From the IMG/VR virus record IMGVR_UViG_2863389319_000001: DNA of 64,000 bases, one strand, 5' to 3'. The position numbers were made by a program, and so were the translations under genes. Origin of the DNA: a virus. Its lineage: Duplodnaviria; Caudoviricetes. This document shows, one piece after another, positions 1-40,307 of the stretch (positions within the stretch are counted from its first letter, which is position 1; each line of letters starts with the position of its first letter). The notes under the pieces were generated by a model, which searched no databases, was not told where the DNA came from, and saw nothing but the letters and a program-made list of their open reading frames with translations.

Positions 1-1227
1 TCAAGCCGCAAGCCAGGCGTCCACCGCCGTACGGCCGCGCTGCCCCTGATCCGGCATGAAGTGCGCGTAGGTCTTGAATGTGACGTCCGGTGAGGCGTGG
101 CCCATCCAGTGTGACAGAGAAACGGGGTCCTCGCGATAGCCGAGCTGAACGCTGGCGTAAGTGTGGCGGCACCGGTGGAACATCAGCTCGCGCGACGGCT
201 CCCAGCCTTCCACGTCGTCGCGGGGCTTGATGAGGCCGATCGAGACCAGTGCGCGCTTCCAGATGAGCTCGTTGAACCCGGTATTGCCCGACGAGTGGAT
301 CGGGTTCCCGAACGCGCTGGTCAGCAGAAGCGAGACCGTGGCGGTAGCACGCTCGCCGTTTCCTGGCCCTCTCCAGGGCAGCGTGCGCAGCGTCGGCGGG
401 TGTACGTCGATGTGCGCCCGTAGCGCCTTCAGCAGGCCCGGCGACAGGGGAATGTCTCGCTCCTTGTTGCCCTTTGGGAGCTTCAGGTACGGCTTACTCG
501 GGTCCCATTGGAGCTGGCGGCGGATGTGCAGAAAGCCGGCTTCCTCGTCGATGTCGTCGGGACTGAAGGCGAAGGCCTCGCCCTGGCGTAGCCCGGCCAT
601 GACGCCGAGGTCCACTGCGGCCTGGTAGCGGTCGGGCAAGGCGGCTCGGAGGCCTCGGACCTGATCGGCCGTCCACGCCCGCGCTTTGGTGTCGCCGGCG
701 CCGTTCGGGCGTTCGTCGGACATTTCCGTGCACGGGTTCTTGACGATCCGCTTGCCGACCGCGGTCTTGAGGATCGTCGTCAGGTGAATCCAGATGACCT
801 CGATGGTGGACTCGGCGAGCTTCTTGTCGCGCAGCGTGGCGAGCCATGCCCGCAGGTGCTCGGAGTCGATGAGGGCGAGGGGGAGGTGCCCGAGGTGTGG
901 CAGGATGTGGTTCCAGATCTTGGACTTCATGGATTGTCCGGTGGTCATCGGATCGCGTCGGGCTGGCCACCAGATCGTTTCGATGTACATGCGCAGGGTG
1001 ATCTGGCCGAGCCTGGGGTCGATGTAGTCACCGCGCCGGCTGTCGGTCTGGGCGCTGGCGAGCCAGGTCTTGGCGTCGGCGAGTGCGGCGAAGGACTCGT
1101 CTTTGACTCCTGGGATGCCACAGACGCGGTACCGCAGACCCTTGCCGTACTGCTCTTTGCGCCACTTCTTGCCGGTCTCGGGGTCGACGCGCTTGCTCAT
1201 CCAGCGGTCTTCGATGTAGCCGGGCAT
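1..1227 (-). CDS. int: Tyrosine recombinase / phage integrase
   Basis: GLRQGE (R), PKGNKER (K), FHRCRHTYAS (HxxR), MGHAS, TYAH (Y) catalytic motifs; N-terminal arm-binding region. Confidence 0.95.
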   Translation of the reverse strand: MPGYIEDRWMSKRVDPETGKKWRKEQYGKGLRYRVCGIPGVKDESFAALADAKTWLASAQTDSRRGDYIDPRLGQITLRMYIETIWWPARRDPMTTGQSMKSKIWNHILPHLGHLPLALIDSEHLRAWLATLRDKKLAESTIEVIWIHLTTILKTAVGKRIVKNPCTEMSDERPNGAGDTKARAWTADQVRGLRAALPDRYQAAVDLGVMAGLRQGEAFAFSPDDIDEEAGFLHIRRQLQWDPSKPYLKLPKGNKERDIPLSPGLLKALRAHIDVHPPTLRTLPWRGPGNGERATATVSLLLTSAFGNPIHSSGNTGFNELIWKRALVSIGLIKPRDDVEGWEPSRELMFHRCRHTYASVQLGYREDPVSLSHWMGHASPDVTFKTYAHFMPDQGQRGRTAVDAWLAA

Positions 1228-1269
1228 GCGGCCTCCTGGCGGTCGTCTGGTTCGGGAGGCCGGTGGGCG

Positions 1270-1590
1270 TCAGGCGCTGTCGGCCACCCGGATATCGTGC
1301 ACGACCCGGATTGGCCGGGTGGCGGATCTGACCGCTTTCGCCTCGTAGTTGACGCTGACAACTTCGCCGTGCCACTCCTGGAACCAGTGGCCTCCGGCGA
1401 GGACTGCGGCCACGCCCTCGTTGAGAGCGTCGATGATCTCCTGCGGCTCGAGGTAGCTTGCGATCTTGAAGATCACGTGGCCCCTCTCCTCGGTGATGTC
1501 GATGTCACGGTCGGAGGGGAGGTCATCCGCAAGTTCGAACTCAACGCTGATCACGTGGTGCTCCTGACGCTCTGTGCGCTGGCAGGGCAT
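1270..1590 (-). CDS. Hypothetical protein between integrase and repressor
   Basis: Acidic globular-looking ORF co-oriented with int and cI; start estimated at ATG 1590. Confidence 0.6.
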   Translation of the reverse strand: MPCQRTERQEHHVISVEFELADDLPSDRDIDITEERGHVIFKIASYLEPQEIIDALNEGVAAVLAGGHWFQEWHGEVVSVNYEAKAVRSATRPIRVVHDIRVADSA

Positions 1591-1696
1591 CACAGCGCCG
1601 AGTGTGTACGGAATGAGGACGCTAGCGATGAGGCGGCCAAGCTGCAAGAACTTGAGTGAAAGCTGAACAGATTCACAGGGCCCCGCCCACGCGGCG

Positions 1697-2128
1697 TCAG
1701 CTTGCCGCTGGCTCGTCCGCATCGGCCTGGACGGCTGCGTCGATCATGGCGCGTAGGCGGCGGCGTTCGCGGGGCGCCATGGCCGCAGCACGCACGATGA
1801 TGTGCCGCATGTCGTCGTCGTAGCCAGACAGTTCGAACGATTCCCATTCGAGCCACTGCGACGCTGCGGCCTCTTTGATTAGCCGGATCGGCTTGCCGAG
1901 GGCGCGGGCGACGGCTTCGAGTTCCGCAGGCTTGGGTGCGCTCAGGACGAGGCCTTGAGCCAGCTTCTGGAACCAGGGCTTGGACATGCCCCGCTCACCG
2001 CCCGACCCTACGGATTTGCGTTGCATGTCCATGTAGGACATGCCAGCCCTATTGGCCTCTAGGACCATGGTCGAGAGCCGTCCTGGGCGGCGGGCCGCGG
2101 CGGTCTCACTCGGCTCGTTCCTGGTCAC
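1697..2128 (-). CDS. XRE-like immunity repressor (cI-like)
   Basis: HTH-like SYMDMQRKS...SKPWFQKLAQG...ELEAVARALG; divergent from cro-like gene. Confidence 0.75.
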   Translation of the reverse strand: MTRNEPSETAAARRPGRLSTMVLEANRAGMSYMDMQRKSVGSGGERGMSKPWFQKLAQGLVLSAPKPAELEAVARALGKPIRLIKEAAASQWLEWESFELSGYDDDMRHIIVRAAAMAPRERRRLRAMIDAAVQADADEPAAS

Positions 2129-2287
2129 GACTACCCCATCCGTATAGGTTCTGCGCGTCCGATGGGGTCGGATCGTCGCAGTTCAGAGACGCTGCATCGT
2201 CGCAGCCTAGAGACATCTCGGATATACATCCATTGTCATGGCGCTCGCAGACCAGTCAAGAGCGCCGATTCAGCCGTCCTAATCTAT

Positions 2288-2341
2288 AGACGGACCGTCT
2301 CTGGCTATGCCAAGCTATACCCAGAACGGTGACGGAACGTC
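2288..2341. promoter_or_regulatory. Operator-like palindromes AGACGGACCGTCT (2288-2300) and GACGGAACGTC (2331-2341); third copy GACGGCCCGTC at 2581-2591
   Basis: Related GACGG-N-CCGTC palindromes in and after the cI/cro intergenic region. Confidence 0.55.
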
Positions 2342-2619
2342 CCACTCTGGAGATGACCTTGCCATCACGATCCAGACTGCACTCCCCAGACACCCTCCGC
2401 TGGATCATGGACCACCCGGGCGGCGGGACGCCCTTCACTGTCAGAGCCCTCGCCGAGGCCGCCCGCTGCCAGCCCGCCACCATAGGGCACCTGCTGGCCG
2501 GCCGATACCGCCGCACCGAGACCGCAACCGCAATTCGAATCGCCGAGACCCTGGGCTGCAGCTTGGCCACCCTTTTTATGGACGGCCCGTCTACGGATCC
2601 CGACGATGCGTCCATATGA
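2329..2619 (+). CDS. Cro-like XRE HTH regulator
   Basis: TVRALAEAARCQPATIGHLLAG...IAETLGCSLATLF HTH pattern. Confidence 0.8.
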   Translation: MTERPTLEMTLPSRSRLHSPDTLRWIMDHPGGGTPFTVRALAEAARCQPATIGHLLAGRYRRTETATAIRIAETLGCSLATLFMDGPSTDPDDASI

Positions 2620-2645
2620 CTAGACCACTCGAAGGAGTGAAGAGC

Positions 2646-2921
2646 ATGCCCGTCCCCGTGACCGCCCCTCCGCCGCCCGGCTGCCTCTGGATCGAGCAGG
2701 CCGCCGAGCGACTCGGCATCAAGCCGGGAACGCTGCACAAATGGCGCCAGAAGCGCCGCGGCCCAGCGAGCTTCAAGCACGCCGGCCGGGTCACCTACCG
2801 CGAGATCGCGCTGGAGAGGTACCTGGCCGAATGCGAGGCGGCGGACAGTCACTCGAACCCGGCGCTCAATCCGCTCCTGCGTGCGCCGGAGCCGCACATT
2901 CGACGCTCGCGCGCCGCCTGA
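2646..2921 (+). CDS. xis: Excisionase-like winged HTH (AlpA/HTH_17)
   Basis: QAAERLGIKPGTLHKWRQKRRGPASFKHAGRVTY; upstream GAAGGAG. Confidence 0.8.
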   Translation: MPVPVTAPPPPGCLWIEQAAERLGIKPGTLHKWRQKRRGPASFKHAGRVTYREIALERYLAECEAADSHSNPALNPLLRAPEPHIRRSRAA

Positions 2922-2997: not shown

Positions 2998-3282
2998 GTG
3001 AGCCAGCTTACCGATCACCGCCCGACGGTCACCGTCGGCACCCTGTACGACCTGAACGAGCGCTACCTGGCCGCAGCCAAGTGTTCCCTGGCGGTCAGCA
3101 GCCGCACCGAGATCCGCGACGGCATCCGGTTCGGCCTCGGCGGCCTGAACTGGCGGGTCAGCACCCCGGACGCCTCCTACGAGGTGGTCACCGGCGAGGA
3201 CGAGGTTCTGCCGGACCTGCCAGTCGTCCGTGCCGGCTGGCCGTTCGCGTTCACCTCCGACGTTCGGGGCGTGGCGGCATGA
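2998..3282 (+). CDS. Hypothetical phage protein
   Basis: GAGGAG RBS + GTG; coupled to next ORF. Confidence 0.6.
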   Translation: MSQLTDHRPTVTVGTLYDLNERYLAAAKCSLAVSSRTEIRDGIRFGLGGLNWRVSTPDASYEVVTGEDEVLPDLPVVRAGWPFAFTSDVRGVAA

Positions 3283-3455
3283 GCACGACCATCAAGGAGC
3301 CGTCCCAGCAGGAGTGGCAGCACGAGATCGACCTGTTTCAGGCGTTCTGCGACCGCTGTGGCAGGAACCCTCTGTGCTGGTCGGTGCAGACGCGCCGCCT
3401 GTTCCGCAAGCAGGTGCAGCGCTGCCGGAAGCACGACCGGGCCGGTGCGCGGTGA
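3279..3455 (+). CDS. Small Cys-containing hypothetical protein
   Basis: ATGA overlap; CDRC motif. Confidence 0.5.
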   Translation: MSTTIKEPSQQEWQHEIDLFQAFCDRCGRNPLCWSVQTRRLFRKQVQRCRKHDRAGAR

Positions 3456-3643
3456 CGGCCCGCCAGGTGATCGCCCACTGGCGCTACCGCCGGGCCGTCC
3501 ACGCCAAGCAGCAGTGCTGCGGCGGCTTGTGCAGCACCTCGGTCGAGGCGCGGGCCACCAGGTTCCTGTGCCCGTGTGGCTGCGGTAGGCCCCCGGGCCA
3601 GCACAACCCGAACGTCATCAGCGAGTTGAGGAGCGCGGCCTGA
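3452..3643 (+). CDS. Small Cys-rich hypothetical protein
   Basis: GTGA overlap; CCGGLC, CPCGCG. Confidence 0.5.
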   Translation: MTARQVIAHWRYRRAVHAKQQCCGGLCSTSVEARATRFLCPCGCGRPPGQHNPNVISELRSAA

Positions 3644-4083
3644 TGAGTACGACACCTGAGTGGGTTAAGCGGCGCGCCGAGATGCTCCTCGGCAGTGCTG
3701 CCAATACGCCGGCCGAGATGGTCAGGCTCCTCGACGATGCCGGTCTGCTTCTGCCTGCGGCGAGCATGGTCCCTGCGCCGTATCCGATCACGGTCCGCCA
3801 AACGGGCTTGGGTGTTGAGATCAGCATGCTGACCCTCGTCTCCGCGCTGATCACGGCGCTGGCCGCCGAGAGCACCGAGGACCCCGAGGGTCTGGCCGAC
3901 GAGCTCGCCGAGATCGATGCCGCGTCCGGCCCGGAGCGGGACGAGCTGCTGCAGGCCCTGGTCGATCGTCTCGGCGGGGCGACGCAGTCTCTCGGTGCGA
4001 CCGCGGCGCGGGACCTGGCTGAGCGGCTGCTGGCCGCGGTCGGGCCCGTCCTCCCGGCGCAGCAGGATCGGAGCGCGGCGTGA
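3643..4083 (+). CDS. Hypothetical phage protein
   Basis: TGATG coupling, Ala/Leu/Glu-rich helical ORF. Confidence 0.65.
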   Translation: MSTTPEWVKRRAEMLLGSAANTPAEMVRLLDDAGLLLPAASMVPAPYPITVRQTGLGVEISMLTLVSALITALAAESTEDPEGLADELAEIDAASGPERDELLQALVDRLGGATQSLGATAARDLAERLLAAVGPVLPAQQDRSAA

Positions 4084-4907
4084 CCGAGCCTCGCCTCGCC
4101 AAACCCACCGAGCACGGCCGGTACTACACCGACCCGGCTGGCGGCCCGGACCTGATCTCTGTCACCAATGTCCTCGACACCTCGGTCCACAAGCACGCCC
4201 TCCGGCCCTGGGCCGTGAGGCTGACCGTCGAGTGGGTCCTGGAGCACCGCATCGAGGTCGCCCGCCGGGCAATCACCGACCGGGCTGCGCTCGTCCATGA
4301 GCTGAAGGCCGTCAGTCAGGCCGTCTCCGAGGCGGCGGCGGATCTCGGCACCCGGGTCCACCTCGCCTGCGAGCAGCGCCTTTTGCGGGCGCCGATCCCG
4401 AACGACGCCCAGGTGCGCCCGTACCTGCGCCGCTTCGACATGTGGCTGGCGGAGTGGGGGGTGGACATCGATCGTGATGTCGTCGCAACTGAGATCACCG
4501 TGCTGCACCGGCGACTTGGCTATGCCGGCACGGCGGATCTGATGATTTGGCTGCCGACCGGCCCCGGCGCCCGAATGGAGCTGTGGCTGATCGACTACAA
4601 GTCGAGTGCCACCCGCTCCGCCCGGTCGGTGTACGCGGAGAACTCGCAGCAGCTCGCTGCGTTGCGGTTCGCCGAGGCGGTCCTGCTGCCGGACGACACC
4701 GACGGTGGGATGCCGGCGATCGAACGGACCGCGGTCCTCAACCTGCGGCAGAGGTCGCACGCCCTCGTCGAGATGCCCGGCAATCAGGACGCGTTCCGCG
4801 CGTTCCGCGGGGCCTTGGTCAACGCCCAGTGGCACCACGCCGCACCCTCCTCCTATCCGGCGCTGACTCCTCCCGTGAGTGCCTCGACCCTTCGAAAGGC
4901 GGCATGA
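4080..4907 (+). CDS. PD-(D/E)XK (Cas4/RecB-like) phage exonuclease
   Basis: SVTNVL, GTRVH, GYAGTAD, IDYKS, QLAAL motifs. Confidence 0.85.
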   Translation: MTEPRLAKPTEHGRYYTDPAGGPDLISVTNVLDTSVHKHALRPWAVRLTVEWVLEHRIEVARRAITDRAALVHELKAVSQAVSEAAADLGTRVHLACEQRLLRAPIPNDAQVRPYLRRFDMWLAEWGVDIDRDVVATEITVLHRRLGYAGTADLMIWLPTGPGARMELWLIDYKSSATRSARSVYAENSQQLAALRFAEAVLLPDDTDGGMPAIERTAVLNLRQRSHALVEMPGNQDAFRAFRGALVNAQWHHAAPSSYPALTPPVSASTLRKAA

Positions 4908-4908
4908 C

Positions 4909-5976
4909 ATGGCTGGACGCATCCTTACTCTCCAGCGTCAGGCCCGCGAACTGGGGCGCCTGCGCACCGGGTGGAGTGTCCCGAATGCCGACCCGAAGAA
5001 GCGGCCCCGCCCGGTCAAGTCCAAGACCTGGGTGCTCAGCTCACATGCCGAGCGCTACGTGCAGGCTGCCGCCGAGATGTGGGGCGGAACCGTAGAGCGG
5101 TGGCAGCCGCAAGGCGCCGGAGCCCCACAGTTCCGGGTGATCACCGAGCGGGAGTCCATCGACGCGCTCCTGCCTCCCGGCGACCCGCTGTCGCAGCACA
5201 ACGAGATGTGGAACAAGGGCGGCTGCATGCGCCGCTGCAACGGCGAAACCGAGCTTCTCTCCCGCAACCCCTGCCTCTGCGCATCCCAATTCGGCGAGGA
5301 CTGGCATTTGGCGCCGCGCGGGCCCAAGGGCGAGCCGCAGGTCTGCTCGGCCACTTCGAGGCTGAACGTCATGCTGCCCGACATGCCCGACGTGGGCGTC
5401 TGGAGGGCCGAGACGCACAGTTTCTACGCCGCCAACGAGCTGGCTGGCACCGTGGACATGGTTCTGTCCGGAACAAATGGCAAGGGCTTGGTTCCCGTGA
5501 CGCTGCGGATCGAGCCGCGTTCCCGAGTCGCCGGCGGGATGAGGAAAGACTTCCCGGTGGTAGTCGTTGAGATCCGTGGGATCACGCCGCGTCAGGCGCT
5601 GTCCGGCCCGCTGTCGACGGCGGTGGCGTTGAACCCGGGGGCAGCCCCAACGGCACTGGCGATCGAAGCCCCGAAGAAGACGGACTGGGTCGCCCTCGCC
5701 AAGGGGGCACTGACCTCGGATGACGTCCGTGGGCTGTGGATGCAGGCTCAGGACGCCGGCGACGTGCACCCCAAGGGCGCCGATCCGCTGTCGAAGGAGC
5801 TGATGGCGATCGCAGCGCTGAAGGATGAGGAGCACGAGGCGTCCAAGCGGCCGGCGGCCGCTCTGCTGACTCCCGATGAGGATGGCGCCATTGAAGGCGA
5901 AGTCGTTGAGGACGAGCCCTCGGGGAACTTGAAGGCCGTTTGGCCGAAGGTTGCGGTCCCTGGGGGTGCCCGTTGA
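4909..5976 (+). CDS. Gp3-like (phiC31 RDF-like) recombination protein
   Basis: ILTLQRQARELGRLRTG N-terminus, RRCNG/CLC/C..TSRLNVML, GVWRAETHSFYAANEL; follows exonuclease. Confidence 0.6.
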   Translation: MAGRILTLQRQARELGRLRTGWSVPNADPKKRPRPVKSKTWVLSSHAERYVQAAAEMWGGTVERWQPQGAGAPQFRVITERESIDALLPPGDPLSQHNEMWNKGGCMRRCNGETELLSRNPCLCASQFGEDWHLAPRGPKGEPQVCSATSRLNVMLPDMPDVGVWRAETHSFYAANELAGTVDMVLSGTNGKGLVPVTLRIEPRSRVAGGMRKDFPVVVVEIRGITPRQALSGPLSTAVALNPGAAPTALAIEAPKKTDWVALAKGALTSDDVRGLWMQAQDAGDVHPKGADPLSKELMAIAALKDEEHEASKRPAAALLTPDEDGAIEGEVVEDEPSGNLKAVWPKVAVPGGAR

Positions 5977-6734
5977 ATGCCTTTGCTGGCGTCCGCAAGG
6001 TCGGCTTCGACACCGAGACCACCTCCGCTGATCCCGACGAAGCGCGGATCGTCACTGCTGCCCTCGTCGTTCGCGGCGGCAGCCGGCCGGATCAGGACTT
6101 CACCTGGCTGATCGATCCCGGCGTTCCGATCCCCGACGAGGCCGCCGGGATTCACGGCATCACCACGGAGATCGCCAAGGCCAAGGGGCAGCAGCCCCGG
6201 GTCGCATTGGAGGACCTGGCGTCGAAGCTGGCCGCCGCTCTCCGGGCGCACATGCCAGTCATTGCCTACAACCTCGGCTTTGACTGGACGGTCCTCGATC
6301 GGGACCTCGCCCGGCATGGCCTCGCGTCGATGACCGAGCGGCTTGCCCCGCTCGCGCCGATCACCCTGCTTGACCCGCACATCATCGACAAGGAGCTCGA
6401 CAAGTACCGCAGGGGCTCCCGAAAGCTGCAACCGACCTGCGAGCTCTACGGGGTCACGCTGACGGACTGGCACACCGCAGAGGCTGACGCGCTCGCCGCG
6501 CTGCTCCTCACCGAGAAGCTGTTCGAGCGCTACCCGCGGCTGGCCCAGATGACGCCCGCCGCGGTGTTCAATGCGCAGCAGGAGTGGCGGCGGACGTGGG
6601 CTGAGCAGTTCCAGGACTATCTCCGGTCGGATAAGGCTGGCGAGAAGCGGGACCCAGCTGCGGTGATCGACGGGTCGTGGCCGCTTCGCCCTCGCCAGGC
6701 GGTGGCGACCAGCGGAGTTGCCCTCCCGCCGTAG
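5973..6734 (+). CDS. DEDDh 3'-5' exonuclease (DnaQ-like)
   Basis: FDTETT, IHGIT, AYNLGFDW, HTAEADA motifs. Confidence 0.9.
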   Translation: MNAFAGVRKVGFDTETTSADPDEARIVTAALVVRGGSRPDQDFTWLIDPGVPIPDEAAGIHGITTEIAKAKGQQPRVALEDLASKLAAALRAHMPVIAYNLGFDWTVLDRDLARHGLASMTERLAPLAPITLLDPHIIDKELDKYRRGSRKLQPTCELYGVTLTDWHTAEADALAALLLTEKLFERYPRLAQMTPAAVFNAQQEWRRTWAEQFQDYLRSDKAGEKRDPAAVIDGSWPLRPRQAVATSGVALPP

Positions 6735-6967
6735 TCCCCGGGATCCCGGGCGAGCAGGTGCAGGTGCTGTCTCTGCTCGCCCGGGGCCTGGACTTCCCGC
6801 AGATCTCCAAGCAGTACGGGATCCCCGTCAACGAGGCCCGGCTGCACCTCCGGACCGCGATGCAAACCCTCGGTGCTCTCAGCCCCACCCACGCCGTCAC
6901 CCTCGCGATCGCCGCCCGCATCCTGCCCGCCGACGTCGCCAACCCCCAGGAGCAGAGCCCATGCTGA
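6677..6967 (+). CDS. LuxR-type HTH-only protein
   Basis: VLSLLARGLDFPQIS...LGALSPTHAVTLA; true start uncertain. Confidence 0.6.
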   Translation: MAASPSPGGGDQRSCPPAVVPGIPGEQVQVLSLLARGLDFPQISKQYGIPVNEARLHLRTAMQTLGALSPTHAVTLAIAARILPADVANPQEQSPC

Positions 6968-7401
6968 ACCGCAAGAACCGCCAGATACGGACCCTCCAGA
7001 CCCGCCTCGACCGAGTGATCGAGCAGCGAGACGAAGCCATCGTCGGACGTGACGAGGCGATCCAGCTCAGCAGCCGGCTCGCGCAGAAGGCCACCGCCGC
7101 GGCCGAGCACGCCAACCGGGCCGCCCACGCCTGGGGGTACGTCGTCAAGGACGCCAACCGGGCCGAGGCACTGTTCGGCCGGGCGATGGCCGCCAGACGG
7201 GCCGAGTCGAGACGGCTGCACCGGATCATCGACGAGCAGCGACGCCAGCTCCGCTACAAAGAGGTCGAGTTGAACAGCGAGCGGGAACGCAGCCGCAAGC
7301 TCGACCAACAGCTGGCGATCCTTGAGGCCGCCAACCGGGAGTCGGACTGGCGGTTCGGGATCAACGCACCAACTGACCAGCCGCTCAAGGCCGCGTCATG
7401 A
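6961..7401 (+). CDS. Coiled-coil hypothetical protein
   Basis: AGGAG RBS; Arg/Glu/Ala heptad-like composition. Confidence 0.6.
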   Translation: MLNRKNRQIRTLQTRLDRVIEQRDEAIVGRDEAIQLSSRLAQKATAAAEHANRAAHAWGYVVKDANRAEALFGRAMAARRAESRRLHRIIDEQRRQLRYKEVELNSERERSRKLDQQLAILEAANRESDWRFGINAPTDQPLKAAS

Positions 7402-7625
7402 GAGGCCTGCTCGGCGACGGCGGCCTCCTGGCTGCCGCACTGAGCGCCGCGACGCTACTCATCCGCCGCACTCAACCAGCGGACACTGGAGCCCTGTTCG
7501 GCATCCTGCAGGCCTTCCACCGCTGCCCCGACTGCCAGCGCGACACCGCGCACGTCATCCACTCCAGCGTCTGCCGCACCTGCTCGGACTGCGGCCACCG
7601 CACTTACCCAGGGGACCCGCTGTGA
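7398..7625 (+). CDS. Small membrane-anchored zinc-ribbon protein
   Basis: Hydrophobic N-terminus, CPDC...CSDC. Confidence 0.55.
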   Translation: MRGLLGDGGLLAAALSAATLLIRRTQPADTGALFGILQAFHRCPDCQRDTAHVIHSSVCRTCSDCGHRTYPGDPL

Positions 7626-7883
7626 GCATCCACCTGCCTGCCTCCCCGGCCGAGGCTCCCGCCACTCCCCCGTGCCAGCCGACCGCAACTGGCCAGCCGC
7701 GACTGCTGATCCGCGTCATCCCCGCCTGGGCGCGTCCCGGCGGCTACGGGCCCGGCGACGTCCCGCAAATGCGCCGGACCGGCGCATGACCTTCCTGATC
7801 CACCACCCGACCGTAGACGCCGCGCTCCTCCTCGGCGTCGCAGGCGCCACCCTCACCACACTCGCCCTCATCTGGAGCCGAGA

Positions 7884-33272: not shown

Positions 33273-33379
33273 TGAGGGTCTCCGATTCGCGATGGTTTGT
33301 GATCTATTGTCCTGCAGTTTCGGGCACACGGGTAGCCCTGTGACCTGACGGTTTGCGCTCAACTCGCGGGCAGCAAGGC

Positions 33380-33778
33380 CTACATGGCGGCGAGCGTCAC
33401 CGCGGCGGGCAGGAGTCCGAGGCCGATGTGGAACGCCTGATCGACATATTGGGCGCCGCCGTTGGCGAGGTAGCTGGTCTGGCCGGTGTGTTCCATCCAC
33501 CAGCGGACGGGCCAGCGCCGGTCGATGAGGCTGTGCGAGCAGCCGATCCAGGCGAGCGCGGCCACGGTGCCTGCCGCGCTGGCGTGCAGGTCGAGGATCA
33601 GGATGCCAAGCCACAGCAGGACCGCGCTGGTGGTGACGTGCGTGCCGGCGTGGGCCAGGTTCGCCCGCCAGCCGGTCGCGGTCCGGTCGGCCTTGTGCAG
33701 GGCCTGGTAATCGGTTTGCAGGGGGTAGTCACTCAGGTGATGAGCGGCGAAAAGGATCACGAAGAAATCGGCGAACAT
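33380..33778 (-). CDS. DUF3307 family membrane protein
   Basis: HHLSDYPLQTD...HAGTH...HSLIDRR...DQAFH. Confidence 0.8.
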   Translation of the reverse strand: MFADFFVILFAAHHLSDYPLQTDYQALHKADRTATGWRANLAHAGTHVTTSAVLLWLGILILDLHASAAGTVAALAWIGCSHSLIDRRWPVRWWMEHTGQTSYLANGGAQYVDQAFHIGLGLLPAAVTLAAM

Positions 33779-33783
33779 GTCGA

Positions 33784-33951
33784 TCAGCCCTCGGTGTGCT
33801 CGACCAGCTTGCCCAAGGCGGGCGCCATGCCGGCTGCGTACTCCTCGGTGCGGCAGCCGGAGCAGACGACGAAAAATCGCTCGGCCTGGTCCATCTCGAT
33901 GCGGGCGACGCCACCGTTGTGGCTGATCTCGTTGCTGACGATCTTGCGCAT
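33784..33951 (-). CDS. Small CxxC protein
   Basis: AAGGAG RBS + ATG; VCSGC. Confidence 0.5.
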   Translation of the reverse strand: MRKIVSNEISHNGGVARIEMDQAERFFVVCSGCRTEEYAAGMAPALGKLVEHTEG

Positions 33952-34284
33952 GTGAATCTCCTTGGGTGAGTGCGGGGTTGTGATTCAAGGGCCCCCGGCG
34001 GGGGCATCCCGTTCCGCTCGCCCAGTGCAGTCCGGGCGTGACCTGGATTACAGCGCGGGCAGTCAGTCCTCGTGGGTGCCAGCGCCGCCGGCCCCGACAC
34101 TCGATCGGGTGAACCGCACGGCTAGCCCTCGGCGTGGCCACCAGGCCCGGCTACCGTCTTCATCAGGCCCCTGGTGAGGGCGACGCACGATCACCGCAGT
34201 GAACACGCCGGCGCCATCATGGCGGACTAGCTGCCCCCTCAGTGGTCGCCAACCCACCAGGGGCCCCTGCATGCCCACTGCCAG

Positions 34285-34521
34285 TCAGCTGCCGACTCCC
34301 TGGTACGGGATCGGGTCGCTGGGCCGGCCGCAGCCCGCGGGCCAGGCGCCGACCGGACGGCCATCAGGGCGGGACTTCGGCGGGGCGGTCTTCGGGACCT
34401 GGTCCTCGCCGTTTGCTTCGGGACGGCGGAACTGGCTGCGCATGAACGCGCGCAGATCGCCGTCCTTGCGCATCTGGCCGATGTCGTCGCGGGTGAAGTT
34501 GTCAGATATGTAGATCATCAA
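34285..34521 (-). CDS. Hypothetical protein following dnaB
   Basis: AAAGGAG RBS; DIGQMRKDGDLRAFMR...GAWPAG. Confidence 0.6.
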   Translation of the reverse strand: MMIYISDNFTRDDIGQMRKDGDLRAFMRSQFRRPEANGEDQVPKTAPPKSRPDGRPVGAWPAGCGRPSDPIPYQGVGS

Positions 34522-35918
34522 CTCCTTTCGCCATCACGGGTCATGTCCTTGAACGACGAGTAGTGGAGCTGCGCGGCCACTGTGATCGTCGCGGTCGCCC
34601 CGGCCCGGTGCTTGCCGACGATCAGGTCGGCCTCGCCTGCGCGGGGGGACTCCTTCTCGTAGGCGTCCTCTCGGTGGAGCAGGATGACCATGTCGGCGTC
34701 CTGCTCCAGCGAGCCGGATTCACGCAGGTCGGAGACCTGCGGCTTCTTGTCGGCGCGCTGCTCGGGCCCACGGTTCAGCTGGGACAGTGCGATCACCGGC
34801 AGCTTCAGCTCCTTGGCCATCAGCTTCAACCGGCGTGACATGTACGACACTTCGATCTGCCGGGACTCGAACCGCTTCGAGCTGCCGGACCCCAGCAGCT
34901 GCAGATAGTCGATAATCACCAGCCGCAGGTCCTGCTTCTCCTTCAGTCGCCGGCACTTCGCGTAGATCTGCGCCAGGTCCAGGTTCGGCGAGTCGTCAAT
35001 GTACAACGGCGCCGCAGTGACGTCGGGCATCCGCCGGGCCACCCGCAGCCAGTCGTCGTCGTCCATGTACCCGGAGCGCATCAGGTGCAGGCCAACCCGG
35101 GCCTCCGCCGACAGGAGACGTATGTTCACCTCGTGGCGGCTCATCTCCAGCGAGAACAGAACCGACGGCAGGCCGGTGGCGATCGAGCAGGCCCGTTGGA
35201 AGTCCAGCGCCAGAGTCGACTTGCCCATCGCCGGGCGCGCGGCGACGAGAATGAACTGCTCGTCCTGCCAGCCTTGGGTGAGGGCGTCGAGGTCGGCGAA
35301 GCCCGTCGGGATGCCGTTGATCTTCCCCTTGTTCTGGGCGATCTCCTCCAGCTTGTCGAGCGTCCCTTCCATCGACGAGGCGACGACGTGCAGCCCGTCC
35401 TCGGCCTGCTCGCCTTCCGCGGTGGTGATCTGCGCCTGGATCTCGGCGATGATCTGCGACGGCTCACCACGGCCGGCCAGAAGATCGCCGGTAGCGCGCA
35501 TCAAGCCCTGCGCGAAGTCCCTCGCGACCCACTTCTCGCGGACAATCTCGGCGTACTCCTCCGCGTTCGAGGTGATGCCAGGCGAGCTCGCGATCGTGTG
35601 CAGGTAGCCGGGGCCACCAGCCCGCGCGAGTTCGCCGATCTTCTTGAGCTCAGCCGCCACGGTGATCGGGTCGGCGGGTTCGCCGCGCCCGTGGAGTTCG
35701 AGGATCGCGTCGTGGATCAACTGGTGGGCGGGGCGGTAGTAGTGCTTGCCCTTGATGATCGTCGCAATGGTGTTGATCGCATCCCGGCTGAACAGCATGG
35801 CCCGCAGCGCGCCCTGCTCGGCGCTGATGTCCTGCGGCGGCTCGTAGTCCAGGCCCTCCACCTTCGCCGGCTCCTGCTGGGCTGGCTGGTCGTCGTGGAA
35901 CGGGTTCTGCTCGGTCAT
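34518..35918 (-). CDS. dnaB: Replicative DNA helicase DnaB
   Basis: AARPAMGKS Walker A, FSLEMS, IIDYLQL, LSQLNR, DLRESGSLEQDAD. Confidence 0.96.
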   Translation of the reverse strand: MTEQNPFHDDQPAQQEPAKVEGLDYEPPQDISAEQGALRAMLFSRDAINTIATIIKGKHYYRPAHQLIHDAILELHGRGEPADPITVAAELKKIGELARAGGPGYLHTIASSPGITSNAEEYAEIVREKWVARDFAQGLMRATGDLLAGRGEPSQIIAEIQAQITTAEGEQAEDGLHVVASSMEGTLDKLEEIAQNKGKINGIPTGFADLDALTQGWQDEQFILVAARPAMGKSTLALDFQRACSIATGLPSVLFSLEMSRHEVNIRLLSAEARVGLHLMRSGYMDDDDWLRVARRMPDVTAAPLYIDDSPNLDLAQIYAKCRRLKEKQDLRLVIIDYLQLLGSGSSKRFESRQIEVSYMSRRLKLMAKELKLPVIALSQLNRGPEQRADKKPQVSDLRESGSLEQDADMVILLHREDAYEKESPRAGEADLIVGKHRAGATATITVAAQLHYSSFKDMTRDGERS

Positions 35919-36892
35919 GCGGCTGCTCCTTGCTCGGCGCGGCGGCGTCGGGCGACTGCGGCGGGGTGGCATGCCGGGCAGTCGACGAGCTCGTTGTCAC
36001 GCGCGGGGTCTTTGATTTGGCGGTGGTTCGGGCTGTGGCAGTTCCCGCACCAGTCGGCGTTCGTCGCGGTGGCCTTGCGGACGGTGGGGACGGTGGAGCG
36101 GTCGCAGTGCTGGGCGAGGTCAGTCCAGCCGCGGGCGGCGAGCTCACGGGCGCGGTCGGCGAGCCACCAAGCGGGGAAGCCGGCCGCGAGGAGCTCACCG
36201 GCCTGCTGCTCGATCTTCTGGCGGGTCGTCGGACTGACGGGCCGTCCGATCGCCTCGGTGTAGGCGGCGGCGACCGTGGTTGCTTCGCTGGGTGAAGAGA
36301 TCTTCTCTCTCTCGTCGTTGCGCGGGGCGGCTGACGGCGGCGCGGAGGGAGGAGAGAGAGGGGTTAGAGGAGTTATAGGAGTAGGGGTCACCTGAGAGGT
36401 GACCCATTCCCACCTGTGAGGTGACCCATTCGACTCTGTGAGGTGACCCATTTCGTCGATTGGGTCACCCGTGAGGTGACCCGTTTCGACGTCGCACGGG
36501 TCCGTCTCGGGCGATCGGGTCACCTGAGAGGTGACCCTTTCCGTGCGGGTGCACTGACCGAGGAACCCGTCGTGCGGAGCCTGCGGGCACAGCGTCACCA
36601 ACTCGTAGACCGCGACCTGCCCCGGGAACCCGGACAGCTCGCGGCCGTCGCGCACCGCGTACACCAAGACGCCCTTCTTCATGAGCTTCCCGATCGCGTT
36701 CCGCCACGCCGGCGCGGTCTTGCCGACCCGCTTGAGGATGTAGTCCTGGTGAATGCCGCCCTTGCGGTATGTCTGGCGGTCGCCGTCGTTCGCGTTCTCA
36801 GCGATGACGAGCAGGTCGGCGCGTTCGCCCGCGGTGAGGCCGGCATCCTGCCAGTGGTCCATGACTTCGACCATCAGCTTGATCCCCATCAA
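35915..36892 (-). CDS. Replication initiator 2 (N-terminal HTH, iteron linker, C-terminal zinc finger)
   Basis: Directly upstream of dnaB; VTSQVT repeats encoded by iterons; WCGNC...CPACHP. Confidence 0.75.
   Translation of the reverse strand: MMGIKLMVEVMDHWQDAGLTAGERADLLVIAENANDGDRQTYRKGGIHQDYILKRVGKTAPAWRNAIGKLMKKGVLVYAVRDGRELSGFPGQVAVYELVTLCPQAPHDGFLGQCTRTERVTSQVTRSPETDPCDVETGHLTGDPIDEMGHLTESNGSPHRWEWVTSQVTPTPITPLTPLSPPSAPPSAAPRNDEREKISSPSEATTVAAAYTEAIGRPVSPTTRQKIEQQAGELLAAGFPAWWLADRARELAARGWTDLAQHCDRSTVPTVRKATATNADWCGNCHSPNHRQIKDPARDNELVDCPACHPAAVARRRRAEQGAAA
36385..36537. repeat. Five GAGGTGACCC iterons, three as near-palindromic GGGTCACC-N5-GGTGACCC
   Basis: Copies ending 36405, 36427, 36449, 36482, 36537; purine-rich tract at 36347-36388. 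Confidence 0.85.
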
Positions 36893-37000
36893 CTCACCGC
36901 CACTGGTGGCATGTCAGGGATGTCGGGGTACACGTCGGCTCCAGCTGGACGCAGGGGTGGTGTGTGCGGGCCACCCGCGTGATGCGGGTGGCCGGGGGCC

Positions 37001-37618
37001 TCAGTGGCCGCAGGGTGCGTAGCCGGCCGCAGCGGCGGCCTGGGCATAGTCGAGTCGGCCGTGTCGGTCGAGGGCTTCGGCGACGTCAAGGACGTGGCCC
37101 CAGAGGTCATCCAGAGCCTCGTCGGCGACGTCGTGCATGGCAGCCAGATCCCGTCGTGGGTCGTCGCTGACGCCGTATGTGACGGGGCGTCCGTGGGCCT
37201 CCCAGGACACGCGGGCGATCTGCTGACGATCGTTGCTGGCCAGGATCTCGACGACCCACGCCCGGGCGCTGGTCCACAGACCCTGCTCGCGTAGCCAGCG
37301 ATCCTCGGCCCGCTCCCCCGCGGCCAAACCCAACAGGGCGTCGGGGAGCGGCGCGGTCAGCGACGAGTGGAGTTCGACGTGCCCGGCCGGGCTCTCCTTG
37401 CCGGGGCCATGTCCGAGATCGTCGGCGATCTGGACGGTTACGAAGGCGATCTCCCGGTCGAGCATCAGAACAGCATGCCCGGCCTCGTGGATGGCGATCT
37501 TCCGGCGGAGCTGGGTGTTCGTCAGGTTGAGGATCCCGTAGGCGGTGGTCGGCCCGGGAATGTGGGGGGCGGCGTGCCTGGTGAACAGCTTGAAGTCCGG
37601 CTCGTAGTGCCAGCTCAT
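37001..37618 (-). CDS. HEXXH metalloprotease-like protein (M41/M50-like)
   Basis: IAIHEAGHAV, LAAGERAE, SNDRQQ, LW..VLDVAEAL resemble the FtsH peptidase domain. Confidence 0.7.
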   Translation of the reverse strand: MSWHYEPDFKLFTRHAAPHIPGPTTAYGILNLTNTQLRRKIAIHEAGHAVLMLDREIAFVTVQIADDLGHGPGKESPAGHVELHSSLTAPLPDALLGLAAGERAEDRWLREQGLWTSARAWVVEILASNDRQQIARVSWEAHGRPVTYGVSDDPRRDLAAMHDVADEALDDLWGHVLDVAEALDRHGRLDYAQAAAAAGYAPCGH

Positions 37619-37797
37619 CGCGGGCCTCCGGCGTGTTGCTGGCCGGGCTTGTCGCCGGTGACGGTGTACGCCTGGTGCTGGGCGTCGTAGCCGGTCTGGA
37701 CGTGCTGGTAGCCGGCGTCCTGGGCCTGGTGCGCGGTCTCGATGGTGCGCAGCGGGGCGTCGCTGACACTGGCGGCGATGCGGGCGATGACCTTCAC
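37615..37797 (-). CDS. Hypothetical protein
   Basis: GTGA/ATGA coupling. Confidence 0.45.
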   Translation of the reverse strand: MKVIARIAASVSDAPLRTIETAHQAQDAGYQHVQTGYDAQHQAYTVTGDKPGQQHAGGPR

Positions 37798-37988
37798 AGC
37801 GCACCGACCTTTCCGCCGGCGAGGGCGCGGTCGATGGCGCAGCGCAGGAGGTTGGCGCCGCAGTGGTCGTGGCAGCGGACGGCGTGGGCGAGGAGGGCCC
37901 AGAGTCGCTCGATGGCGCCGAGGATGCGGGGGCCGACGCGGCCGATCGCGGCGTTCTCGGTCGGTCGGTGGATCGTGGAGGCGCTCAT
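37794..37988 (-). CDS. Hypothetical protein
   Basis: ATGA coupling. Confidence 0.45.
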   Translation of the reverse strand: MSASTIHRPTENAAIGRVGPRILGAIERLWALLAHAVRCHDHCGANLLRCAIDRALAGGKVGAL

Positions 37989-38293
37989 CGGGCGCCCCTG
38001 TTTCGGCCGGGCACGCGGTGGTAGGCGATGCAGCGGGCGGCGGCGTATCGGCCCGAGTCGTACGCCTGGTGGTACAGCTCCTCGCGCAGGTCATGGCACA
38101 GGCGGCCGAGCGCGTCGAGGATCAGCCAGTCGTCCGGGAGGAACCCTTCGCGCGACGTCCGCCAGATGCGATCCAGCCAGTCGATCAGTGACTCCCGCAG
38201 GTCGTTGATGCGGGCGGTGATGTCGCTGGCGAGCTGGCGTGCGGTGTGGTCCTGGGTGGTGGCGACGAGCGTGTCGAGTACGGAGGTGCTCAT
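37985..38293 (-). CDS. Hypothetical protein
   Basis: ATGA coupling. Confidence 0.55.
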   Translation of the reverse strand: MSTSVLDTLVATTQDHTARQLASDITARINDLRESLIDWLDRIWRTSREGFLPDDWLILDALGRLCHDLREELYHQAYDSGRYAAARCIAYHRVPGRNRGAR

Positions 38294-38508
38294 CGGGCGG
38301 CCTCGCTGTCCCCGTCGATCCAGGCGCCGAGCTGCTCGGTGAGGACAAGCTCGACCAGGTGGCGGGTCAGCCGGGCCGGGTCGAAGCCGACCATCAGGAT
38401 GTTCTCGTCGAGCCAGACGGAGCGCAGCGGGTCACCATCGGTCGGGAGGGTCACGGCGACGATGCTGGCGCGCGGCAGAATCGGGACGGGGGCGAGGATG
38501 GCGTTCAC
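38290..38508 (-). CDS. Hypothetical protein
   Basis: GTGA coupling; GFDPARL resembles neighbour. Confidence 0.55.
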   Translation of the reverse strand: MNAILAPVPILPRASIVAVTLPTDGDPLRSVWLDENILMVGFDPARLTRHLVELVLTEQLGAWIDGDSEAAR

Positions 38509-38756
38509 GCGGTCACCACCCAGTCGGGGGTTACGTCGCGGAGGTTGCCGAACAGGTCGAGCATGATCTGCCAGGCGGTAGGGCGGTCCATCTGGGCCGG
38601 GGAGTAGGCGGCGACGATGCCCTCGGCGACCTGCTGGAAGCAGATCGCGGGGAGGGCGTCATCGGCTAGAGCCGGCGCCAGCGCGGCGATTCGCGGCGGG
38701 GTGGGCTGTTCCGTGCATGCAACGCGTGCCATGATTGGGACGTCTCCGATCTGCAC
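38505..38756 (-). CDS. Hypothetical protein
   Basis: AYSPAQM resembles neighbour. Confidence 0.5.
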   Translation of the reverse strand: MQIGDVPIMARVACTEQPTPPRIAALAPALADDALPAICFQQVAEGIVAAYSPAQMDRPTAWQIMLDLFGNLRDVTPDWVVTA

Positions 38757-38840: not shown

Positions 38841-39056
38841 TCAGGCTGCGTTCTGGAGCAGTTCGTTGACCGTGGTGCCGTAGGCGTTCGAGATCAGCAG
38901 CGCGACTTCCAGGGACGGGCTGCGGCGACCACTGAACAGGTGCGACAGGGTTGCCTCGTGGATGCCAGTGCGGGCGGAGATCAGCCGGTTACTGGTGTCA
39001 CCGCTGCGTCGAGCGTGCCGTTCGACGACTTCTCGGCTGAGCCGAATGTTGGACAT
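38841..39056 (-). CDS. Cro-like XRE HTH regulator 2
   Basis: ISARTGIHEATLSHLFSGRRSPSLEVALLISNAYG; AAAGGA RBS. Confidence 0.85.
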   Translation of the reverse strand: MSNIRLSREVVERHARRSGDTSNRLISARTGIHEATLSHLFSGRRSPSLEVALLISNAYGTTVNELLQNAA

Positions 39057-39123
39057 GGGGGTCCTTTGGTGGCGAGGTGGTGGTGAGCTAGCCGGATTTT
39101 CCTCGGCAGGTCAAAGCTACGCC

Positions 39124-39232
39124 TTAACGACCGCGCAAGCAAGTAATAGCGCCGATCGACCCACCCCGAGCATGCGCAAGATGGTTCGGTTTTCGTCTAA
39201 CCTGGCCAGTAACTTGCTCGCGCGGTCGATAA
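39124..39232. promoter_or_regulatory. 21-bp inverted repeat (2 mismatches) in second cI/cro region
   Basis: TTAACGACCGCGCAAGCAAGT (39124-39144) vs ACTTGCTCGCGCGGTCGATAA (39212-39232). Confidence 0.7.
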
Positions 39233-39247
39233 CGACGGAGGACAGCC

Positions 39248-39661
39248 ATGGCCGACATGAAGGCGTTCGCAGACTGGCTCCACGAGCAGATGATCGCCGC
39301 CGGCTACGACCTGAGCAGCCAGCGCTCCGGCGGCAAGAGCAAGCTCGCCAACGATGCAGGCGTCGCTCTCTCCCAGGTCCAGCGTGCCCTCGGCGGGACA
39401 ACACGTCCCGACATCGTCACCCTGCGGGCCATCGCCCATGCCCTTGATATCCCGATGAAGGTCATGCTCGTGCGGTCCGGCACTGTGGACGCAGGGGACC
39501 TGGACGAGCAGGTGCTGCCAGCTTCGGATCTCGACGTGCGCACCCTGGGGCTCCAGCGCGGCGTTCCGGCCGACAAGCTCGATCACTGGGTCGCGATCGT
39601 CGACGCGGTCACCGGAACGTTCGCCGCCGAGCGGCAGCATCACGGTTCTGCAACTCCCTGA
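39248..39661 (+). CDS. XRE-family repressor 2 (cI-like)
   Basis: FADWL...KSKLANDAGVALSQVQRALGGTTRPDIVTLRAIAHAL; GGAGG RBS. Confidence 0.85.
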   Translation: MADMKAFADWLHEQMIAAGYDLSSQRSGGKSKLANDAGVALSQVQRALGGTTRPDIVTLRAIAHALDIPMKVMLVRSGTVDAGDLDEQVLPASDLDVRTLGLQRGVPADKLDHWVAIVDAVTGTFAAERQHHGSATP

Positions 39662-39719
39662 CACACTAGGCGGATCGCTGCGACGCTGCTCCTGTCGATC
39701 ACCGAGCGCAGGAGCAGCG

Positions 39720-40307
39720 ATGGCCCTCTTCAAGAAGTCCCAGCCCTCTGACTCTTCCGGTCCGGCGCCGCTCGCCGAGTACAAGGTCGTCTACAAGGGG
39801 GGCCTGGCGGACCTGCCGAAGGCGAAGGTCGCGGGGATCGAGTTCCGGGTCTGGGGCGATCGGTTCACGCTCGACCCGACCGCGGCGGCCAAAAGGTTCT
39901 GGACGCCGCTCGCGATCCCCTTCTCCGCCATCTCCGACCTGAAGATCGTCACCCGGCAAGTCGGCACAGGGCAGGCGATCCTCGCCGGCGCCAACGCCCG
40001 GAACTTGGCGCAGGACAACAACATCCACTTCCACTTCCAGGACGCTGCCGGCCAACAAGTCATCCTGCGCGTCGAGATGCTCACCGGCGTCACCGTCCAG
40101 GGCCAGGCCAAGAAGGCCGCCGAGTTCAACGACCTGCTGCAGGCCCACGGCATTCGGCGGCTCTTCGGTGGCGCGCCCCAGGCAGCAGCCACGGCGCCGA
40201 CCGGCGGCTCGCTGGCCGATGAGATCGCCAAGCTGCAGCAGCTCCTGCAGGCTGGCGCCCTGAGCCAGACCGAGTTCGAGCAGGCGAAGGCCCGGCTCCT
40301 CGGGTAG
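39720..40307 (+). CDS. SHOCT-domain protein (PH-like N-terminus)
   Basis: C-terminal LADEIAKLQQLLQAGALSQTEFEQAKARLLG. Confidence 0.85.
   Translation: MALFKKSQPSDSSGPAPLAEYKVVYKGGLADLPKAKVAGIEFRVWGDRFTLDPTAAAKRFWTPLAIPFSAISDLKIVTRQVGTGQAILAGANARNLAQDNNIHFHFQDAAGQQVILRVEMLTGVTVQGQAKKAAEFNDLLQAHGIRRLFGGAPQAAATAPTGGSLADEIAKLQQLLQAGALSQTEFEQAKARLLG

Follow-up and report, generated by a model that had tools for sequence, protein, structure and literature searches.

A chromosomally integrated actinomycete plasmid-phage with two convergent early arms and a putative plasmid-type replicon

How does a single temperate element come to carry two early gene arms that run into one another, each behind a regulatory switch of its own and each with its own candidate replication initiator? 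We address this question for a stretch of 64,000 nucleotides (IMG/VR record IMGVR_UViG_2863389319_000001; hereafter the window), which corresponds to C1:1440236-1504235 of a four-contig, 9.57-Mb actinomycete genome and has its closest plasmid and protein matches in Streptomyces and Kitasatospora. An earlier, sequence-only reading had described two complete head-to-head early regions, with two cI/cro switches, two unrelated initiators, two origins and a single integrase. It had offered two explanations, a fused dual-replicon element or an integrase-less element nested in a prophage between 2 DUF6221 genes. The best explanation, to which we assign a probability of roughly 0.6, is an old and stable fusion in which a tailed phage is joined to the backbone of a Streptomyces-type conjugative plasmid, of the kind known from pZL12 and pSLE1, here in integrated form. 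The first of the two options thus fits, with a plasmid-like second arm and its neighbours lying inside a complete phage. What is new relative to the known kind is that this plasmid-phage is integrated in the chromosome and carries an extra plasmid-type replicon and switch.

One integrated element and the meeting point of its arms

Genes were called with a codon-usage model trained on the host genome. The element is bounded by a perfect 126-bp direct repeat with copies at window positions -286..-161 (attL) and 95978..96103 (attR). The left copy is the 3' end of a host gene whose protein ends in ...GRGFYDY, the repeat duplicates that 3' end, and no tRNA was found near the att site. A tyrosine integrase (1..1227, minus strand; Pfam Phage_integrase, 1.2e-9) adjoins the left copy. 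It was the sole PF00589 or PF00239 match inside the element in genome-wide scans, and no further recombinase was found among 86 additional small window open reading frames (ORFs), in agreement with the single integrase noted before. Because there is one att pair and one integrase, this is a single element of approximately 96.3 kb, and the window is the left two thirds of this integrated temperate element. Its genes fall into long strand runs: 3 genes on the minus strand (1-2128), a plus-strand run interrupted by one small opposite gene (2407-23847; opposite gene 12394-12636), a minus-strand run with a two-gene islet on the plus strand (23855-39056; islet 30210-30847), a short mixed run (39248-44223), and an unbroken plus-strand run that starts at 44392 and continues past the window end to approximately 91.3 kb. 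The guanine-cytosine (GC) content of the window is 69%, and it is even along the stretch, at 67-71%.

The plus-strand run from 2407 and the minus-strand run from 23855 hold the 2 early arms, arm 1 (2998..23847, plus strand) and arm 2 (23855..38756, minus strand). They end in the stop codons TGA at 23845-23847 (plus) and TCA at 23855-23857 (minus), leaving a 7-bp gap, CCTCCGG (23848-23854). No terminator-like site was found at this junction, where the predicted fold is no better than that of shuffled sequences (z +0.93). Coordinates and fold test thus agree with the earlier description of a collision at 23847/23855 with 7 bp between the stops and no terminator, the term head-to-head excepted: the arms are convergent in gene orientation and it is their 3' ends that meet. 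Read continuity across the junction had been proposed as a check, and contigs of 2 public DNA runs (23644-27154 and 22932-24498) do cross it without difference, these runs possibly sharing sample or source with the assembly itself.

We compared the element with relatives that were found via their large terminase, which is 84% identical in genome G063, 77% in G157 and 71% in G305. Synteny was worked out at the protein level because an 18-kb junction DNA query against 167 genus genomes gave only short single-gene matches. When the two halves of the region were compared by megablast with 50,697 phage records, neither found a match. A more distant comparison was G433:C30, a 91.3-kb contig of Streptomyces sp. 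Da 82-17. The known kind was represented by the pSLE1 sequence (NZ_LN831788.1), and pZL12 was covered through its described synteny with pSLE1.

Replicons, switches and transfer genes

The order of genes in arm 2, read leftward from its switch, is 6 small genes, a gene for a 205-aa protein, initiator 2, dnaB and then the rest. DnaB (34518..35918, minus strand) is a full-length replicative helicase of the DnaB type (DnaB_C 1.3e-92, DnaB 7.8e-28), and the closest matches of its gene, at approximately 75% nucleotide identity, are the dnaB genes of 50-62 kb Streptomyces and Kitasatospora plasmids. The dnaB start overlaps the stop of the initiator 2 gene (35915..36889, minus strand; 324 aa), and the 2 genes are translationally coupled. 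Initiator 2 had no match in Pfam, PHROG or NCBIfam, tblastn against phage records found no match, and a profile of its family gave nothing significant against PDB sequences. In its AlphaFold2 (AF2) model, residues 1-110 form a confidently predicted winged-helix N-domain and residues 118-194 a disordered linker, and the C-domain is helical and carries a Cys/His zinc ribbon. Structural matches of this model in Foldseek were weak winged helix-turn-helix (HTH) proteins that included the staphylococcal RepA structures 4pql and 4pt7. In the ESM Atlas the protein lies near HTH_36 clusters (0.96-0.97) and at 0.93 to Phage_rep_O, and some of its homologues carry PF13730.

The DNA that encodes the disordered linker contains five partly palindromic iterons of approximately 22 bp with the core GAGGTGACCC, which form the predicted origin 2 (36385..36546). 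All 5 window copies of the core lie at 36396-36537, against 0.3 expected, and they constitute by far the densest repeat cluster of the window. Their spacings of 22, 22, 33 and 55 bp are multiples of 11 bp, one helical turn, and a purine-rich stretch of lower GC content (36280-36385) adjoins them. With at least 4 phased iterons, a winged-helix initiator and an adjacent helicase gene, this locus has the predicted make-up of an iteron-type theta replicon. The initiator 2 homologues of G433:C30 and of an 86-kb soil contig are encoded by genes that contain the GAGGTGACCC core as well, different repeats occupy the same place in the gene of G063 and of 2 plasmids, and across the relatives initiator and iterons co-vary. 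Both of these plasmids are linear Streptomyces plasmids, of 11.4 kb and 24.6 kb, in which 'hypothetical' proteins of approximately 340 aa are 43-44% identical to the C-domain of initiator 2. In both, the homologue is directly downstream of a GntR gene and has a mid-gene repeat cluster, and the 11.4-kb plasmid has no other evident Rep. The soil contig (86.3 kb) shares the N-domain together with the iteron core, beside GntR, HTH_17, small ORFs, DUF2637 and a 718-aa protein. G433:C30 likewise combines this N-domain with the core. The family of initiator 2 (window 35915-36889; L024 4707-5738; L025 5341-6345; L046 10001-11257) is modular, with a variable winged-helix N-domain, iterons in the linker DNA and a conserved Cys/His C-domain. 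This uncharacterised family, for which there is no Pfam model, appears from these comparisons to supply small linear Streptomyces plasmids with their Rep, and it could serve in vectors.

Arm 2 is preceded by switch 2. A cro-like HTH protein (38841..39056, minus strand; 71 aa; HTH_3 1.7e-10) is the product of its first gene, a cI-like HTH protein (39248..39661, plus strand; 137 aa; HTH_3 3.7e-3) is encoded divergently, and between them lies a control region (39057..39247; 58% GC) whose 17-bp inverted repeat occupies 39128-39144 and 39212-39228. G157 has homologues of both proteins: that of the cI-like protein is 35% identical, and that of the cro-like protein, in the corresponding position, 41%. 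In G063 the HTH_3 protein encoded at switch 1 shares 31% identity with the cI-like protein. Switch 1 has a comparable design. Its candidate repressor (1697..2128, minus strand; 143 aa) is a predicted XRE-type five-helix HTH protein with C-terminal helices. No Pfam, PHROG or NCBIfam match was obtained for it, its family profile gave nothing significant against PDB sequences, and the alignment of its family with the cI-like protein of switch 2 in hhalign was not significant. The assignment comes from its AF2 model (predicted local distance difference test score of 80), a five-helix bundle with a helical tail whose Foldseek neighbours are ClgR, DdrO, C-proteins, SinR and Stl (probability 0.9-1.0, E only 0.07-0.5), and one homologue carries PF13560. 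The control region (2129..2406; 57% GC) has 2 direct 19-bp repeats (2172-2190 and 2196-2214), against 0.14 expected, and is followed by a cro-like HTH protein (2407..2619, plus strand; 70 aa; HTH_3 2.9e-5, also HTH_31 and HTH_26), the first of arm 1, and by an HTH_17 protein of the excisionase/MerR type (2637..2921, plus strand; 6e-9), a candidate Xis. That last match was made on the longer frame 2307-2921 (residues 129-176), which we rejected as a single 204-aa gene in favour of the 2 genes just given. Of the two cI/cro switches proposed earlier, switch 2 thus holds, with its HTH_3 matches and inverted repeat, and at switch 1 the gene model 2307-2921 had to be replaced. At both loci a predicted HTH repressor gene diverges from a cro-like gene with repeats between them, as would be expected of lambda-type switches. 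Between switch 1 and switch 2 there is no relationship in the operator-like repeats, and their cro-like proteins share 28% identity over 39 residues. No Peptidase_S24 match indicative of an S24/LexA-like self-cleavage domain was found in the proteins of 1697-2128 or 39248-39661, and the model of the former is all-helical.

The initiator of arm 1 (9394..10503, plus strand; 369 aa) is of another type. Its phage-initiator N-domain matches phrog_3171, 'replication initiation protein' (1.2e-49), and its O/DnaD-like C-terminal part matches phrog_391, 'O-like' (6e-21), and phrog_2514, 'DnaD-like helicase loader' (8e-19). It has no similarity to initiator 2 (BLASTP E > 4), and the claim of two unrelated initiators is borne out by this comparison. 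A tentative origin 1 (9881..9986) comprises all 3 window copies of the 9-mer CCTTCCGCA, 2 direct and 1 inverted, which are confined to a central 106-bp stretch of the initiator 1 gene. The proposal of two origins is thus carried by the 5 iterons of origin 2, and stays tentative for origin 1 with its three 9-mer copies. In the relatives only the C-terminal ~110 aa of initiator 1 are conserved (64-65%), and the homologous genes of G063 and G157 have mid-gene repeats of different sequence; a variable N-domain and differing mid-gene repeats beside a kept C-domain are the pattern expected of an origin-specific initiator.

The other recognisable products of arm 1, a phage-type early operon, are an exonuclease (4080-4907), a Gp3-like protein (4909-5976), a DnaQ-like exonuclease (5973-6734), a RuvC-like resolvase (7884-8498), an SSB (8782-9297), a zinc-finger protein (10500-11126), a C5 methylase (13714-15423) and a DUF6221 protein (22997-23389), all on the plus strand. 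This content bears on an alternative that we consider unlikely, although it is the best placed of those examined: that the element has one replicon working in two phases, arm 2 being the immunity and early-lytic region, arm 1 a delayed-early recombination region, and the tra genes a separate addition without a replicon of their own. Initiator 1 would then be a replisome organiser for recombination-dependent (sigma) replication of the SPP1 type and not an independent initiator. The wealth of recombination functions in arm 1 (exonuclease, RuvC, SSB), the 'DnaD-like helicase loader' and 'replisome organizer' annotations among the C-terminal matches of initiator 1, the weakness of origin 1 and the presence of a helicase gene in arm 2 only would all suit such an arrangement. 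It is harder to reconcile with the N-domain of initiator 1, which matches a phage 'replication initiation protein' family at 1e-49 and varies, next to a kept C-domain and differing mid-gene repeats, in the manner of an origin-specific binder, and with the switch that arm 1 has of its own.

The plasmid-like character extends to the right of switch 2. A GntR/UTRA regulator resembling KorSA (43444..44223, minus strand; GntR 1.5e-17, UTRA 1.5e-10) is divergent from a transfer operon of the plasmid or actinomycete integrative and conjugative element (AICE) type (44392..54071, plus strand). The operon contains approximately 15 small ORFs, a NUDIX gene (47163-47582; 4e-24), genes for a 329-aa and a 189-aa protein, and a tra block of 3 genes, 49339-51429, 51431-51805 and traB (51810-54071), encoding 696, 124 and 753 aa. 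TraB matches FtsK_SpoIIIE (6e-6) and, below the cut-off, plasmid_TraB (6e-10). Compared with pSLE1 69270-73850, the 3 proteins are 42%, 37% and 42% identical, with TraB matching over its full length at an E-value of 1e-166 (780 aligned columns); against phage records TraB gave only 3 weak staphylococcal or faecal matches. GntR, NUDIX, small ORFs and TraB make up what we take to be the Kor-Pif-Spd-Tra set of Streptomyces plasmids and AICEs, the Spd part being assigned from the small ORFs alone (DUF2637 was found in G063 and not in the window). NCBIfam provided no name for the proteins of 205, 329, 189, 696, 342 or 303 aa. A requirement of three genes, the number in the tra block, has been stated (PMC3583192). 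A k-mer scan revealed a repeat-rich stretch at 48201-48600, inside the gene for the 329-aa protein, which is a possible candidate for the TraB recognition (clt) site.

Were these modules relics, the element would be a decaying composite, an ordinary integrative phage or a wholly defective one in which one replication module, the transfer genes or both are leftovers. We regard this as improbable. The failure to find partition genes and, in G157, TraB, and the occurrence of a Gp3-like directionality factor beside a tyrosine integrase, which suggests leftover parts, speak in its favour. Nevertheless, the key genes (both initiators, DnaB with both its domains, and TraB) are intact, full length and free of stops, TraB aligns to that of pSLE1 over its 780 columns, the att repeats are perfect, and the iterons are conserved with their initiator across distant elements.

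The virion genes follow the transfer operon. The large terminase (62075-63760) is preceded by a small ORF (61645-62172) and followed by a portal-NUDIX-MuF fusion encoded by a single 1047-aa ORF (63782-66925; window end and L026:1-2925), all on the plus strand. Beyond the window the late region encodes a 500-aa head-region protein, a 1458-aa tape measure protein, Dit, minor tail proteins, more tail spikes and an endolysin, and continues to approximately 91 kb; 3 minus-strand HTH regulators at 91.4-94.0 kb stand just before attR. As judged from these predictions, the set of packaging, head, tail and lysis genes is complete. A 1082-aa beta-helix tail spike (58383-61631, plus strand; phrog_29706, 3e-85) lies upstream of the terminase genes, away from the other tail genes, and had no tblastn match in the compared stretches of G063:C4, G157:C16, G305:C2, G044:C13, G170:C1 and G433:C30.

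Further observations concern individual genes. Behind dnaB, arm 2 has an RNA-ligase-like gene (32688-33272), genes for a membrane protein and a MazG-like protein, and many unknowns. The cI-like gene of switch 2 is followed by one for a SHOCT-domain protein (39720-40307), and a 378-aa PCMT-type protein methyltransferase gene (42069-43205) lies between switch 2 and the Kor gene and has a 74% identical, inverted counterpart in G063. In arm 1, 4 direct copies of TGYACCCACAAG (0.34 expected) occupy 12655-12758, in the spacer between the small leftward gene 12394-12636, which has a 78% identical homologue in G157, and the gene 12802-13131; this predicted array is a control site or binding array internal to arm 1. 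The Gp3-like protein 4909-5976 belongs to a family of directionality factors of serine integrases and has been kept in an element with a tyrosine integrase. At the arm 1 end of the element, where the window has its tyrosine integrase, G063 and G157 encode large serine integrases with Resolvase and Recombinase domains (L017:11652-13178 and L022:12912-14462; 508 and 516 aa). The Gp3-like factor that persists in the window fits these serine integrases, and the comparison shows an exchange of the integration module. A pooled Pfam scan of the small window ORFs, in which positions were not resolved, returned Mrr_cat, PycTM (a Pycsar effector), WhiB, two GerE/LuxR HTH proteins, DUF4326 and RLIG1.

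The layout in related prophages

We then asked how old the arrangement is. In G063:C4 the homologues of arm 1 run from 90425 to 67446 and those of arm 2 from 48510 to 67234, so that the arms are again convergent, and they meet between the same 2 junction genes (46% and 84% identity). Arm 2 of G063:C4 keeps the gene order of the window and its plus-strand two-gene islet, with a DnaB that is 38% identical and an initiator 2 that is 29% identical and has its own mid-gene iterons. Also in place in G063 are a GntR gene, small ORFs and genes for a DUF2637 protein and an FtsK-family protein of 654 aa. The arms also converge in G157, where DnaB is 58% identical. More loosely, the layout recurs in pSLE1 and in G433:C30, which has the iteron core, a 26% identical TraB and a 32% identical large terminase. 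Because protein identities among the relatives span about 30-92%, the arrangement is old, and this comparison indicates that it would pre-date the divergence of the window's element, G063 and G157. At the place of TraB, G157 has a gene (L020:11924-13531) whose WXG100-like product of 535 aa contains a Tox-REase-2 nuclease toxin domain.

G063:C4 (93,235 bp) spans the related prophage almost exactly. We considered it as a free 93-kb plasmid copy and dropped this interpretation, since the ends of G063:C1 (8448525 onward) and G063:C2 (803517 onward) match it at 100% identity, which makes it a redundant contig over an integrated prophage. Apparently the prophage was handled as a repeat during assembly, which may point to extra excised or replicating copies in that culture.

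These comparisons bear on the nested element of the sequence-only reading, which had suggested looking for related prophages that lack 23.9-55.3 kb. We found none such. G305 shares the late genes and is devoid of arm 2 replication or transfer genes, and its early region is still approximately 60 kb long and mostly one-directional; early regions of large size are therefore the usual condition in the group. The DUF6221 genes thought to bracket the insert both gave real Pfam matches, but the 2 proteins (22997-23389 and 55407-55850, the latter also on the plus strand) are not similar to each other (pairwise E 1.4), and the second, which had no tblastn match in G063:C4, is not a boundary. A simple inversion at a 36-nt inverted match (24180-24215 / 55391-55426) was dropped as well, because undoing it gives no co-linear phage and the relatives share the convergent layout. 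The notion that approximately 23.9-55.3 kb is a recently acquired, integrase-less plasmid or AICE remnant, a passenger in a ~65-kb prophage, is highly improbable: the plasmid-like content of the block, its want of an integrase of its own and the absence of its genes from G305 would fit, but there is one att pair, no direct repeats were found flanking the block, GC content is uniform, and junction genes and layout are kept among strongly diverged relatives and in pSLE1 and G433:C30. A recent or separable nested insert is thus not supported by the sequences compared.

A possible division of labour and the closest known systems

If the 2 arms are the early regions of 2 programmes, their gene content allows a mechanism to be proposed. 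Arm 1, with its cro-like and Xis-like proteins, exonucleases, RuvC, SSB and O/DnaD-like initiator, would serve phage excision, recombination and lytic replication. Arm 2, with its own cro-like protein, the iteron initiator and DnaB, would together with the Kor-controlled tra operon run a plasmid- or AICE-like programme, in which the excised circle would be replicated by the theta mode and moved as double-stranded DNA through TraB. Separate repressors would set the two programmes. Because the arms run together without a terminator, expression of one may dampen that of the other, and their head-on meeting may add transcriptional interference between the two routes. In its fullest form this would be a three-way mobile element with two bistable switches, held in the chromosome via Int and leaving it either as a virion, under switch 1 and arm 1, or, under switch 2, arm 2 and Kor, as an excised circle that replicates by the theta mode and is transferred by TraB, with the terminator-less collision making the lytic and conjugative programmes mutually exclusive; we put this forward tentatively and think it doubtful in all its parts together. 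The element nonetheless provides a system for asking how a mobile element chooses between viral spread that kills the host and conjugation that spares it, and if convergent transcription helps to enforce that choice.

Several points weigh against the fusion that we favour and the roles assigned to its arms. The 'lytic' and 'plasmid' labels of the arms were drawn from family context alone, origin 1 is weak, and the HTH match of the cI-like protein of switch 2 lies below the Pfam cut-off. The structural matches of the modelled switch 1 repressor and of initiator 2 have poor E-values and are weak. TraB was not detected in G157, where the blank of the contig in the PF01580 scan is weak evidence because the same scan missed the window's own TraB at threshold. 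No ParA or ParB family match was found among the scanned window proteins, with 64-96 kb scanned only partly, and a stable plasmid state is for this reason unlikely here. Finally, the double replicon is not general to the known kind, since pSLE1 is without a detectable homologue of initiator 2 or DnaB.

Phage-plasmids are now regarded as a major class of mobile elements. Among those of actinomycetes, pZL12 is the sole studied case and has been termed a singleton (PMC7157519); the S. leeuwenhoekii plasmid pSLE1 has been described as syntenic with this plasmid-phage and of high homology to it, and as carrying ParAB and 2 integrases (PMC4487206). The circular pSLE1 (86,370 bp) is annotated with an early arm that reads rightward from 22 to 47 kb, then a leftward arm over 47-63.5 kb that has GntR at its end, and a rightward spd/tra operon that leads directly into the terminase genes; there is a 4-bp overlap between its convergent genes. 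The window's element resembles it in an early region of more than 50 kb whose rightward and leftward arms converge without a spacer, in a GntR gene divergent from a spd/tra operon ahead of the terminase, in the homologous three-gene tra block, in RuvC-like and SSB proteins that are 52-54% identical, and in the C5 methylase, DUF6221 and siphovirus-type late operon that both possess. It differs in being integrated, with its 126-bp att repeat and one tyrosine integrase, whereas pSLE1 is a plasmid with ParAB; the extrachromosomal maintenance with ParA/ParB that marks the pZL12/pSLE1 kind was not seen here. Neither initiator 2 and DnaB nor a match to initiator 1 was detected in pSLE1, whose visible replication genes are those of an HTH protein and DciA on the plus arm. 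Some 8 kb including the tail spike gene separate TraB from the terminase in the window, and, because the terminase is only 32% identical to that of pSLE1, the virion module belongs to a distant lineage. Shifts from phage-plasmid to integrative phage are known in the P1 group (PMC12282955). The element and its diverged relatives show that the phage-plus-TraB design exists in chromosome-integrated form also, and in this lineage it includes a second, plasmid-type replicon with a cI/cro-like switch of its own.

With AICEs such as pSAM2 the element shares a tyrosine integrase acting on the 3' end of a host gene, an Xis-like HTH protein, a GntR-type Kor, a NUDIX (Pif-like) protein, many small Spd-like ORFs, an FtsK-type TraB translocase and the expectation of a replication step after excision. 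Unlike AICEs, it measures 96 kb instead of approximately 9-24 kb, has a full virion module and lambda-style cI/cro switches, and encodes an iteron/winged-helix initiator with DnaB in place of RepSA, RepAM or a prim-pol.

Phage P1 has 2 replicons, oriR/RepA for the plasmid state and oriL/RepL for lytic growth. The window's element resembles it in that a single temperate phage genome has 2 unrelated and separately controlled initiators, of which one is a plasmid initiator of the iteron type. The two have no sequence relationship, P1 is neither integrative nor conjugative, and the division of labour shown for P1 would apply to the window's element by inference only. The closest parallel to the predicted origin 2 in its architecture is O/ori of phage lambda: a winged-helix N-domain, a linker whose coding DNA holds the iterons, a next gene that provides the helicase step, and a position behind cro. 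Unlike the lambda locus, to which it has no detectable homology, it encodes DnaB itself instead of a P-type loader, and the C-domain of its initiator carries a zinc ribbon.

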